This document shows positions 4,954 through 8,438 of a stretch of 64,000 bases of DNA, piece after piece (within the stretch, counting starts at the first letter, position 1; each line of letters opens with the position of its first letter). The notes under the pieces were generated by a model, which saw only the letters and a program-made list of their open reading frames with translations, did no database searches and had not been told where the DNA came from. Position numbers and translations under genes: made by a program. The stretch comes from Escherichia coli (GTDB lineage Bacteria; Pseudomonadota; Gammaproteobacteria; Enterobacterales; Enterobacteriaceae). Location of the stretch: the NCBI RefSeq assembly GCF_003334335.1, contig NZ_QOWQ01000021.1. The stretch is one strand, 5' to 3'.

Positions 4954-5810
4954 TATTCACACTCCCCAACCAGATTGAGAATGACCGCTGCACCATCGTC
5001 TTCCATGCATTCACCCTTACCACTTGCCAGAAACCAGCGGCACACCTCCACGGCTTCAGCGCGTGTCACCGGTTTGATGGTTGCCAGCAATTTTTCAAGG
5101 TAGCGCTCCCGGTCATATACCGATTCGTGATGCTCAGAGTAACCAAACTCATCGCCCTGTTCTTTAGTTGCAGTGTGGCGAACACTGTAGAGCCAGTCCC
5201 AGTAAACGAACTCGCGAACAACATCAGACAGCGTATAAGGCTCAGGCAGCACATCGCGATATCCATCAACAAATGCCCGACGCTGTTCATCAATTTCGTT
5301 CATGCGGCTGCCGCCAATGCTTCCGGCTTTTTTCTCTGCCGCAGTCCAGCCCCAGAGATGATCGTTGATAAATTTCTGGGAAGACCTGATGACCCGCTCT
5401 GCTTCCACATCTTCGAGCGCTGCTTCATAGCTACCAAACGTAGCCCTGACTGATGCCGCTTTTTTGATGTTCTCCCGGGCGTTCCTGATAACCTGCGCAG
5501 GGTTATCCATGCCGATGATGCCGAACGCAACCTGGAAAGGTTCGTAACCATTCGCCAGCAGATAACGCGAATAGCGTTCCTGAGCCTCTTTTGGGGAAAT
5601 TTTAATTTTCACCAGCGCAGCCTCAGCAGCATCCAGATGTGCGGGTTCGTTCAGACGGATAACCTCCAGCACCCAAAGATAAGCATCAGTCTGCTTATGC
5701 CCGGTGATTCTCCGTTGCTCTGGCAGGGGCTTGATGTTTGCGAGGGCGGAGCTGTACGCTGCCGTCGGGATGGTGAATAGTGCTTTATGTTCGTTATTAT
5801 CAGTACGCAT
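4953..5810 (-). CDS. Hypothetical phage protein (285 aa), start/stop-overlapped with primase and Q
   Basis: ORF with overlapping start and stop codons to its neighbours; no family assigned. Confidence 0.55.
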   Translation of the reverse strand: MRTDNNEHKALFTIPTAAYSSALANIKPLPEQRRITGHKQTDAYLWVLEVIRLNEPAHLDAAEAALVKIKISPKEAQERYSRYLLANGYEPFQVAFGIIGMDNPAQVIRNARENIKKAASVRATFGSYEAALEDVEAERVIRSSQKFINDHLWGWTAAEKKAGSIGGSRMNEIDEQRRAFVDGYRDVLPEPYTLSDVVREFVYWDWLYSVRHTATKEQGDEFGYSEHHESVYDRERYLEKLLATIKPVTRAEAVEVCRWFLASGKGECMEDDGAAVILNLVGECE

Positions 5811-6778
5811 TACGCAACCGCCTTTTTCTTATGGAAAACCAGCTCTCGAACCTGATCACCGTTCATGAGCATATTGTTGAAATCATCGTGATCCGGCCAG
5901 TACACGCTCACGCGCTGCAGGTCATTCTTTGCCATCAGATTGGCATGAGCACATTCGCAAGCCGCAGCCAGCCCGGTGGCGCTGTTCTCGTCACGGTCGG
6001 CAAAAATAATCAGGTGCAGAACACCAGCTGGTACGCGAAACTTTTTCATAAAGCCGCTGTTAATGGTTGCCCAGGTGTTCACGTTATAAATCTGGTGCGC
6101 TGACAGCGCTGTTTCGATGCCTTCGGCGATACCCAGAGTGCTGGCGACAGGAAACATGCGGATAGCTACAGAACGAGCGTGATCCAAATAGTTATCTTCC
6201 TGCAGGGATTTGAGGCGCTTTGCACTGCTACCGATATCTGCTTTTTTATCACCATCAAGCAGAGTCTGGTGCAGATAGCACAACTCCCCTTTATCGTCCG
6301 TAGCAAGTGAATAAAGAGACTGGAACACACTCCCGTTGTGTCTCTGCCTGGCATTGAACCGGATCGCCTCAGCAGGAAGACTGAATATTCCACGAGAATT
6401 AAGATACGCTGCGCCGGATGTACCACGCAGTGCCTCCAGTTTTGAAAACTTGCTCAATACCCGTTTGCGTAAGCTGGTGGCGCTGCTGGTTACCGGGATT
6501 TTAACCCGTTGGTAATCATTACCGATCAGGCGGTCTATTTCGGTACAAATCTCGTTAAATGGCTTCGCCTGTGTCAGGGTGACAAGTTTCATACCATCGC
6601 CACTACCACATACACAGATCCACGTTCCTGCACCGTCGCGGTCGTCAATTCGGAACTTGCCACGTGCACCGCATACCGGGCATTCACCCTTGAAGTGATT
6701 TTTTCCGGTTATCGGCGGCAGACCGAAGTGCTCTAATATTTCAGGCCAGCGGCCTTTCGCTGCATCTGCTGTTTTCAT
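5810..6778 (-). CDS. Phage DNA primase (N-terminal zinc ribbon plus Toprim domain, P4-alpha-like)
   Basis: CPVCGARGKF...WICVCG zinc-ribbon motif followed by a Toprim-like acidic region (FADRDEN). Confidence 0.65.
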   Translation of the reverse strand: MKTADAAKGRWPEILEHFGLPPITGKNHFKGECPVCGARGKFRIDDRDGAGTWICVCGSGDGMKLVTLTQAKPFNEICTEIDRLIGNDYQRVKIPVTSSATSLRKRVLSKFSKLEALRGTSGAAYLNSRGIFSLPAEAIRFNARQRHNGSVFQSLYSLATDDKGELCYLHQTLLDGDKKADIGSSAKRLKSLQEDNYLDHARSVAIRMFPVASTLGIAEGIETALSAHQIYNVNTWATINSGFMKKFRVPAGVLHLIIFADRDENSATGLAAACECAHANLMAKNDLQRVSVYWPDHDDFNNMLMNGDQVRELVFHKKKAVA

Positions 6779-6779
6779 C

Positions 6780-8438
6780 TTACTGACTCAGACTGTTTAT
6801 ATTTTTCTGGAGTTGGTGCTTTGCCTGCATGATGCGCCAGGCCTCACTGCCTGCCGGTATCTCACGTCGTTCATCACGTTCCTGAGATAAATCAATCGTT
6901 GTTTGTGCGTTTTCAGTGACCTTCTGAACCCGCTGGTGGCCTTTGGCAAACCGGATCAGTTTGTGTCTGATGTAGTTATTTACCTCAGGGGTAATTTCCA
7001 TCGGAAAGTTACTCAGTCCGTCAGGCCACTCACCGAACTTTTCCCGGAAAGTGTGAGCACACCATCCGTCACTGACTGGACGCCCCAGCGAAGCACGCTG
7101 GCGCTGATAAAATTTGATCTGACTCCACCAGGACTGTTTCTCTGCCTTCGTCGACTGATGCTGATTTTTACCCAGCTTATTAAGTTTGCGGCTAGTGTCA
7201 GTATCAACGTCTTCACCTCGCAGCGGCTTGTGTCCACATTTCGGGCAAACATAGACGCCTGCTGGCTTCATGTAGTGGCATTGAGGGCATTCATGTGGCA
7301 GTTTTTCGGCCCGTTCCTCAACTGCCCGGCGCGCGCTTTCCTCCATGCCGTCAGACTTACCGGGAAGCTCGTCGTACTCGATTGAATCCGGATAACCCAA
7401 ACGGTGCACGGTGCCGCTGTGATCGAAGATAAGGCAGGACTCTTTACCCGGTGCGGTGCGCAGCCCACGCCCGAGAGCCTGCAACCAGCGAATTTCGCTT
7501 TTTGTTGGCCTGGCGTAGATGATGCAACGAACGTCACTATCAAAGCCGGCCACCAGAACGCCCACACTAACGATGATTTTCGTTGCACCGGTTTCAAAGC
7601 GGTGAATGATGGTCTGGCGCTCATCTACCGGAGTGTCGGCGGTCATTACCTCAGCGTTAACACCCGCCAGGTTAAACTGGATTGTCAGATAATTGGCGTG
7701 AGCTACGTTGACGCAGAAAGCGATGGTAGGTAAATCCCGACCATTCTCCAGCCAGTTCTGTACGATGTCGCCCACCAGCGTAGAGCCGCACATGATTTCA
7801 GCCAGCTGTGTTTCGTTGTAATCGCGGCCGTACTCAAGCGAAGATGTGGTTTTAACACCTTTCAGATCCGGCTTAGTTGGCGCGTAAAATTCGTATTTAC
7901 TCAGATCGCCACGCTGGATTAACTCGCCGATGGTGGTCGGCTTAATCAGTCGGTCATAGTATTTGCCCAGGAACGGAGAAAACGGAGTACCCGACAGGCC
8001 AATCACCTTTACGCCTTTGCCGCGCAGACGTTCGATATCCTTCAGGATGCGTTTTTTACGCAGGTGCGCTTCGTCGATAATCAGCAGATCGATATTTTCA
8101 GGAAAAACACGACGAATAAGCGTGTCAGCGCTGGCAATCTGAATTTTCCGGTCCGGATCGTAGTTCGGGTGATCCGCCCAGATATAACCGATTTCATCTC
8201 CAGGTAAACCATACTGCACGAACCGATTAGCCGTCTGACCAATCAGGATGGTGTACGGAACACAGAACAGAACACGCATACCACGGCTGACAAAACCAGC
8301 AACTATGAAGGCTGCCAGACCCGTTTTACCGCTACCTGTTGGCGAGTAAACCATGAAGGTGTCGTTTGCCTTCCAGTCACGGCGCAACATGTTTAACGCT
8401 CGTTCCTGTGCAAAATTCGGCGTGATCGTCAGCTCCAT
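6780..8438 (-). CDS. Phage superfamily-2 DEAH-box helicase with C-terminal zinc ribbon (replicative helicase)
   Basis: Walker A SPTGSGKT, DEAH box (IIDEAH), C-terminal CPQC...CPKC; adjacent to the primase. Confidence 0.8.
   Translation of the reverse strand: MELTITPNFAQERALNMLRRDWKANDTFMVYSPTGSGKTGLAAFIVAGFVSRGMRVLFCVPYTILIGQTANRFVQYGLPGDEIGYIWADHPNYDPDRKIQIASADTLIRRVFPENIDLLIIDEAHLRKKRILKDIERLRGKGVKVIGLSGTPFSPFLGKYYDRLIKPTTIGELIQRGDLSKYEFYAPTKPDLKGVKTTSSLEYGRDYNETQLAEIMCGSTLVGDIVQNWLENGRDLPTIAFCVNVAHANYLTIQFNLAGVNAEVMTADTPVDERQTIIHRFETGATKIIVSVGVLVAGFDSDVRCIIYARPTKSEIRWLQALGRGLRTAPGKESCLIFDHSGTVHRLGYPDSIEYDELPGKSDGMEESARRAVEERAEKLPHECPQCHYMKPAGVYVCPKCGHKPLRGEDVDTDTSRKLNKLGKNQHQSTKAEKQSWWSQIKFYQRQRASLGRPVSDGWCAHTFREKFGEWPDGLSNFPMEITPEVNNYIRHKLIRFAKGHQRVQKVTENAQTTIDLSQERDERREIPAGSEAWRIMQAKHQLQKNINSLSQ

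Follow-up and report, generated by a model that had tools for sequence, protein, structure and literature searches.

A probable Fels-1/Eru1-type helicase-primase replication segment with a conserved structured leader in an Escherichia coli prophage

Phage lambda encodes the initiator O and the loader P for host DnaB. In P4 alpha, a primase is fused to a superfamily 3 (SF3) helicase and an ori-binding domain, and E. coli RadD (YejH) carries a zinc motif after its helicase core. A further arrangement was described for Eru1 Shiga toxin (Stx) phages, which have no O/P and instead carry a DEAD/DEAH superfamily 2 (SF2) helicase, a Toprim protein, and a DUF1367 protein (Llarena et al. 2021, PMC8044961). 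For Eru1 phages, lysogen stability, and through it toxin output, has been tied to the kind of replication module that lambdoid and Stx prophages carry (PMC8044961). Eru typing relies on two genes next to cI (Fagerlund 2022), and the available sections of these sources state no identity threshold for the Eru1 type. In Salmonella phage Fels-1 (NC_010391), the genes STM0901.1n, STM0901, STM0902, and STM0904.1n are annotated as a putative helicase, a putative DNA primase (similar to P4), a hypothetical protein, and the antitermination protein Q. Here, we analyzed a locus of the same gene order and orientation in a 64,000-nucleotide stretch of E. coli DNA (contig NZ_QOWQ01000021.1, assembly GCF_003334335.1; the whole stretch is called the window). 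Its four genes encode a helicase, a primase, a 285-aa protein (orf285), and a Q-type antiterminator, preceded by a non-coding leader and a gene for a 102-aa protein (o102) (Table 1).

This region very likely represents the replication part of an early-right (pR-type) operon in a lambdoid prophage of the Fels-1/Eru1 type, in which an SF2 helicase and a P4-alpha-type primase replace O and P. The original prediction had named the four open reading frames (ORFs) and proposed a helicase-primase pair instead of lambda O/P. Its ORFs and coordinates agreed with the sequence, so the gene boundaries stand, and the replacement was borne out by the domains, the homology, and the lack of O/P-like genes. 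Between int and Q, the annotated near-identical prophage L002 has no O/P-like or other replication gene. The start codons are backed by full-length homologue alignment, with Eru1B aligning from residue 1, Eru1A from residue 2-3, and the 285/286-aa homologues of orf285 covering it at 100%.

Table 1. Features of the replication segment and its flanks in the window, listed in the direction of transcription.
Feature	Position	Strand	Remarks
o102, 102 aa	8852-9160	minus	directly upstream of leader; phrog_852
Non-coding leader, 413 nt	8439-8851	minus	between o102 and helicase
Hairpin A1, 7-bp stem, loop UUAAAGGU	8841-8862	minus	straddles o102 stop codon
Hairpin A2, same stem-loop, other stem sequence	8815-8836	minus	
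Palindrome GTACTAG-N4-CTAGTAC	8763-8780	minus	then GTTTTTAT; degenerate second copy at 8612-8629
G-rich/polypurine tract GGGGAAGAGGGTAAGGGGGGTAAGGGGGG...	8712-8754	minus (sense strand)	
Conserved box GGTTAAGTAGATCACTGT, then A-rich-loop hairpin GGGCG...CGCCC	8630-8675	minus	
19-codon upstream ORF (MKTTSQNYYLISTGAAQWS)	8429-8488	minus	Shine-Dalgarno GAGGGGG; stop overlaps helicase ATG
SF2 DEAH-box helicase (predicted), 552 aa	6780-8438	minus	
P4-alpha-type DNA primase, 322 aa	5810-6778	minus	
orf285, 285 aa	4953-5810	minus	
Q-type late antiterminator, 271 aa	4138-4953	minus	
Candidate late promoter pR', TTGACT-18-TATCAT	4098-4069	minus	consensus scan only
Candidate terminator tR', 10-bp stem and T run	4029-4006	minus	consensus scan only

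The helicase matched the Pfam families ResIII (4.7e-15), DEAD (3.1e-09), and Helicase_C (4.5e-10) as well as phrog_16. All of the expected SF2 elements (Walker A, DEAH, motif III, and the motif VI arginine finger) were present, with PTGSGKT at residue 33, DEAH at 122, SGTP at 149, and QALGRGLR at 320. A four-cysteine zinc ribbon, CPQC-x10-CPKC, was found at residues 384-401. The ribbon had been predicted correctly but not at its true place, since it follows the helicase core, with about 150 residues beyond it, and is not at the C-terminus. The closest solved chain was RadD (6jde, E = 3e-20, over the second RecA-like domain), and the RadD score of 94.6 bits compares with an equivalog cut-off of 720 bits. 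Judged by its motifs, the window helicase is an SF2 DEAH enzyme with a RadD-like core and a predicted unwinding activity. Its C-terminal tail and its genomic role differ from those of RadD.

The primase contained the Pfam domains Zn_Ribbon_Prim at residues 30-63 (6.6e-14), DUF7146 at 104-193, and Toprim_3 at 215-306 (5.3e-14), and it matched phrog_510. The motifs CPVC (residue 33), CVC (55), AEGIETA (218), and DRDEN (261) were present, giving both the N-terminal zinc ribbon and the conserved Glu and DxD of the Toprim domain that characterize DnaG/P4-type primases. It shares the Zn_Ribbon_Prim and Toprim_3 core with P4 alpha. Unlike P4 alpha, however, it stands alone, and the accompanying helicase is an unrelated SF2 enzyme. 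The gene previously called Q-like was supported by two Pfam Antiterm matches (PF03589, 2.4e-26 and 2.3e-21); it also has CxxCxGxG zinc motifs and belongs to phrog_127.

A mosaic breakpoint was observed within the helicase gene at about 7100 (minus strand, residue ~445). Variation in the helicase core is tied to that in the leader, whereas the last ~105 helicase residues follow the type of primase present. This pattern would be compatible with an interface between the helicase tail and the primase, and equally with plain linkage.

Comparison with other replication modules placed the locus beside Fels-1, whose annotation matches it, and made it a relative of the Eru1 class. The Fels-1 proteins are 84/95/82/80% identical to the helicase, primase, orf285, and Q of the window. 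Fels-1 likewise has an o102 gene and a related leader upstream, together with overlapping junctions, although the spacings are -4/-1/-4 in Fels-1 and +1/-1/-1 in the window. It differs by a 122-aa PD-(D/E)xK-like ORF within the leader and by a single copy of the leader hairpin A. In megablast searches, the module region was 99.7% identical to Escherichia phage vB_EcoS-611R1, 95.8% identical to phage phi467, and 84% identical to Fels-1. Matching gene order was also found in Cronobacter phage ENT39118 and Klebsiella phage KPP5665-2. The module is carried by 111 of 5,426 complete E. coli genomes, and the helicase family is widespread in phages (1,498 of 50,697 phage records). phi467 is an Stx2f-converting phage (PMC7366253), so the module of the window is one that an Stx2f phage carries. 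The helicase-primase module is therefore already known, having been annotated in Fels-1 and described as the Eru1 class in 2021, and its Fels-1/Eru1-like placement helps in typing without contributing anything novel. What remains novel is the conserved structured leader and two orphan proteins, o102 and orf285.

In the Eru1 phage TL-2011c, an SF2 helicase followed by a Toprim primase likewise replaces O/P downstream of cro, and an o102 homologue, a G-rich tract, and a GGTTAGGTAGATCACTGT box are found upstream. The window helicase is 66% identical to Eru1A and the primase 58% identical to Eru1B, both over the full length, and no O/P accompanies them. The 506-aa Eru1 helicase has a shorter C-terminal tail than that of the window. 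In Eru1, NinB (formerly DUF1367) takes the third place, ahead of NinG, NinH, and a Q of a different family; TL-2011c has neither orf285 nor UUAAAGGU hairpins. In the window, the third gene is orf285, which has no NinB match. Therefore, the locus is an Eru1-like (Fels-1-type) variant and not Eru1 sensu stricto. Compared with lambda, the operon position from cro/cII to Q is the same and orf285 lies where the nin genes sit, but there is no Phage_rep_O domain, no P-like loader, and no iteron array inside the genes.

The helicase and primase genes are joined as TAAgATG, that is, a stop codon, one base (g), and a start codon. The primase/orf285 and orf285/Q junctions both read TAATG with a 1-nt overlap. 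To survey these junctions, the four genes were placed by tblastn in 84 related loci and the ORF bounds were then determined. The primase/orf285 overlap of 1 nt was retained in 83 of 84 measurable loci. Helicase/primase spacing was +1 (36 loci) or -4 (40 loci) in 76 of 82, and orf285/Q spacing was -1 (29 loci) or -4 (37 loci) in all 66 loci with the Q type of the window. Elsewhere an unrelated Q family (MRDIQMVLERWGAWAA... type) replaces this Q with the same TAATG overlap. Junction tightness is thus conserved down to 63-75% protein identity, though the exact form varies, and the module shows the conserved stop/start overlap or abutment that we took as the mark of coupled genes. Such conservation goes beyond chance.

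Shine-Dalgarno (SD) sequences were assessed by anti-SD duplex energy, with a cut-off of -4.4 kcal/mol and a background of -2.5 kcal/mol. The primase gave only -2.2 kcal/mol, which is at background level, and therefore has no SD. SD-like duplexes were obtained for the helicase (-6.6), orf285 (-7.8), and Q (-8.9 kcal/mol). An exact 4-mer scan had first suggested that orf285 also lacks an SD, and this was overturned by the duplex energies. Since the primase has no ribosome-binding site of its own, we propose that helicase and primase would be made in a fixed ratio. The view of the whole block as one translationally coupled unit was accordingly well founded for the step from helicase to primase and overstated for orf285 and Q, which have their own SDs. 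No promoter- or terminator-like site above chance was found within the four-gene block in a consensus scan, and the first strong terminator-like hairpin occurs only after Q, at the tR' candidate. A microarray study of mutagen-treated Salmonella lists STM0900-STM0903 of Fels-1 as a single operon with a coordinated response (PMC2225428). Expression of the block as one unit is plausible; orf285 had been expected to be co-expressed with replication and Q, and its co-expression is plausible as well, but its tie to replication is weakened by the comparisons given below.

The protein encoded by orf285 matched phrog_6204 end to end, as well as PHROGs 19083 and 2887, all of unknown function. The domain search advised with the original prediction returned no known domain, with no match in Pfam (E <= 0.001), NCBIfam, PADLOC, or PDB sequences, and no nin family was matched, so that orf285 does not correspond to a known nin protein. 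Its structural model was confident and all-helical. The model matched no known fold, and neither fold nor sequence connected the protein with an initiator or loader. A beta-clamp-binding motif, HKALF, was considered at the N-terminus and rejected, as it is non-canonical and packed inside the modelled fold. Enterobacteriaceae prophages often carry close homologues (79-100% identity), for which RefSeq uses the name 'helix-turn-helix domain-containing protein'. When 50%-identity representatives were searched exhaustively, 136 families were recovered. In an alignment of 51 members, many distant ones had an extra N-terminal domain, which was Sigma70_r4_2/HTH_23 in 5-11 of the 51, Bro-N in one, and ParB-like in one by eye only. 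The window orf285 has neither the N-terminal extension nor a helix-turn-helix (HTH), and the RefSeq name may stem from the HTH domains seen only in these longer relatives.

Conservation within the module is highest in the leader, with 94-100% nucleotide identity compared to 65-95% in the coding regions. In ENT39118, it is 87-92% identical and the genes 63-88%. A coding function of the leader was rejected, as its alignment contains frameshifting indels of 1, 2, and 5 nt. The leader RNA folded better than shuffled controls (z = -3.1), and no Rfam match was found in it.

Two copies of a stem-loop, hairpins A1 and A2, lie at its upstream end. Their consensus is written as TTAAAGGT, with an invariant 8-nt loop, and tandem UUAAAGGU stem-loops were seen in 73 of 74 related loci. 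For the covariation analysis, every TTAAAG[GA][TC] in the o102-helicase interval was collected with no stem requirement, which yielded 118 instances from 74 loci and 27 distinct 22-mers. The 7-bp stem was paired in 93.7% of cells compared to 24-46% in slid controls, and six of the seven pairs were changed on both sides in a compensatory manner. The covariation score was 0.686 against 0.262 in shuffled data and was reached by 0 of 500 shuffles. Among the non-Watson-Crick cells, G-U occurred 22 times on the sense strand and 4 times on the antisense strand, and this bias shows that hairpin A was selected on the transcript (sense) strand. As in the boxB of lambda nutR, a short sense-strand stem-loop with a conserved loop and a covarying stem follows the first early genes. 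Unlike boxB, the loop has 8 nt and is not a GNRA-like pentaloop. The 64-kb window contains no boxA and no further copy of hairpin A, including any nutL-like second copy, and no N homologue was identified; further copies were likewise absent from 1.58 Mb of related loci.

Further elements of the leader follow. The GTACTAG palindrome occurs in 20 sequence variants across loci, with conserved arms and a variable centre. The G-rich tract, in which TRF found a 9-nt unit repeated 2.3 times, was shared by all lineages, with Fels-1, Klebsiella, and TL-2011c among them. Its 15-mer GGGGGGTAAGGGGGG was tried as a module marker in IMG/VR and discarded; 68 of 80 match loci had no helicase match, and 51 of these 68 had the motif away from the contig end. 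The match count is about that expected by chance for a 15-mer on a rough estimate, and therefore nothing was concluded from it. The GGTTAAGTAGATCACTGT box is common to Fels-1 and TL-2011c, and the A-rich-loop hairpin behind it appears with the compensatory stem GGGCA...TGCCC in Fels-1. The frame and the overlap of the upstream ORF (uORF) are retained in Fels-1, L004, and L081, with mostly different residues. The uORF may open a hairpin that holds the helicase SD, and because its stop overlaps the helicase start, the chain of overlaps may begin one step before the helicase.

A site at 8553-8609 in the leader was found to hold a cassette ORF directly upstream of the helicase in relatives (L002 10451-10819; L001 8380-8748; L085 5164-5541; L020). 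It encodes a 122-125-aa PD-(D/E)xK-like protein or, by eye, an HNH endonuclease-like protein. The PD-(D/E)xK-like form corresponds to STM0899 of Fels-1 and gp29 of TL-2011c, which share 37-40% identity. The window and about 40 other loci are without the cassette ORF.

Origin prediction in or near the helicase gene, as had been advised, gave neither iterons nor an AT-rich region. In positions 4000-9700, the repeats amounted to the hairpin A pair (two copies of 21 nt) and the 9-nt repeat, with no iteron array (at least 3 direct repeats), and no AT-rich trough is present in the helicase and primase genes. The leader is the best candidate for the cis element of the module, either an origin or a regulatory RNA.

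We propose the following course of events. Once the prophage is induced, transcription entering from the cro side would run through o102, the leader, the uORF, the helicase, the primase, orf285, and Q, and Q would then activate the late promoter just downstream. At the stop/start overlaps, ribosomes ending one gene would restart on the next. The orf285 product would serve as an accessory early protein, encoded at the position that Eru1 phages give to NinB/NinG/NinH.

Several points weigh against this reading. No experiment on the replication function of the module was found in the literature searched, and no origin was identified. Over its C-terminal helicase domain, the helicase resembles RadD, type IV restriction endonucleases, PbeA, and DpdF. 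Seven of the 22 other same-strand junctions in L002 are equally tight (gap of 1 nt at most, or overlap), and therefore tightness is a general style of the genome. Furthermore, orf285 and Q are each preceded by an SD-like sequence, so the overlaps need not mean obligatory coupling. These last two points, along with the SD of the helicase, would fit overlaps that reflect genome compaction only, with genes translated independently and no regulatory meaning in the unit. We consider this unlikely, since the window primase lacks an SD, 72% of the primase upstream variants lie above -4.4 kcal/mol, and the junction forms shift (+1/-4 and -1/-4) with the tightness kept across diverged proteins. The resemblance of the helicase leads to another alternative, namely that helicase and primase are a cargo pair for repair, recombination, or defence/anti-defence instead of replication. 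RadD was the top match in both NCBIfam and PDB, and PADLOC gave partial matches to PbeA, a type IV restriction endonuclease, and DpdF. However, these matches span the generic helicase C-terminal domain only and fall far below the family cut-offs. The two genes occupy the O/P position after cro in the isolated, viable phages Fels-1, TL-2011c, phi467, ENT39118, and KPP5665-2, which have no other replication genes at that position, and a cargo role is very improbable.

For orf285 itself, two other roles were weighed. It could be a third essential replication component, such as an origin-recognition or helicase-loading factor, in keeping with its nearly invariant overlap with the primase gene and with the DNA-binding N-terminal domains of distant members. 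The family also directly follows three unrelated replication types: the SF2 helicase and primase, O and DnaB, and a P4-like primase-helicase with SSB, where the orf285 relative precedes a PF03589 Q. Yet Eru1 phages carry NinB/NinG/NinH in the orf285 slot beside helicases and primases of 58-66% identity, orf285 was found in only 12 of 50,697 phage records by tblastn compared to the 1,498 for the helicase family, and Klebsiella phages retain only residues 172-285 (the C-terminal 114). Because the gene is lacking in Eru1 phages, truncated in Klebsiella phages, and found after unrelated modules, orf285 is probably not an obligate replication partner; with no HTH and no resemblance to an initiator or loader in the window protein, an essential replication role seems improbable to us. 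A role with Q or the late switch in transcription control is quite unlikely too. It would agree with the stop/start overlap of orf285 with Q even where Q belongs to the unrelated family and with the sigma-70 region-4-like HTH of some relatives, but the window protein has no such domain, and orf285 relatives also occur apart from Q. In L086, Sequestin and RusA genes come after the relative, then several small ORFs lacking annotation and structural genes, and a Q is not recognizable; no Q is nearby in L088 and L089. Thus, orf285 is probably an accessory early protein of the nin slot and not a core replication component.

The o102 protein was found in 74 of 85 sequences surveyed and forms a helical hairpin. 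It contains an Arg-rich motif that is invariant (EPVS-RKENRARHEANTRLR), and it is one possible partner of the leader element. Its homologue in the TL-2011c RefSeq record is an unannotated ORF (L085 4663-4956).

Tentatively, the leader could act in cis for replication or regulation in modules of the Fels-1/Eru1 type, which have no recognizable initiator, and orf285 could be a new all-helical fold family between the replication genes and Q; we hold this to be possible rather than probable. If it is true, the hairpins, palindromes, and G tract of the leader would be a protein-recognized RNA gating helicase-primase expression, or alternatively a transcription-dependent (R-loop or primer-forming) origin and a loading site for helicase and primase. 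The conserved leader makes the origin, its recognizer (no initiator being encoded), and the roles of o102 and orf285 testable for the whole class.

On the repressor side, a DicA-like gene is located at 9543-10085 (plus), with a probable start at 9630 giving 151 aa. Neither its PHROG nor its NCBIfam matches, from the two collections searched with it, pointed to a peptidase S24 domain, which may suggest antirepressor-type induction and not induction by RecA cleavage.

Downstream of Q and tR', a 314-aa ORF (3057-4001, plus; low GC of 35-38%; phrog_7003, of unknown function) lies before the tRNA genes. It has no PADLOC, NCBIfam, or Pfam-derived annotation and looks like a moron. Two tRNA-Arg genes (2685-2852, minus) and a weak third tRNA-like match (2863-2931) were detected, together with the small RNAs STnc100 (2341-2550, minus, 159 bits) and AsxR (2285-2337, plus, 63 bits). 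Such small RNA and tRNA genes, here at 2285-2931, are typical of the stx flank in Stx phages. The interval from Q to a 639-aa ORF (213-2132, minus) showed no stx gene; the ORF is situated downstream of the tRNAs, an arrangement also found in Stx phages. This ORF is taken to be NanS-p-like, and its counterparts are DUF6645 in L002 and a SASA family carbohydrate esterase in TL-2011c.

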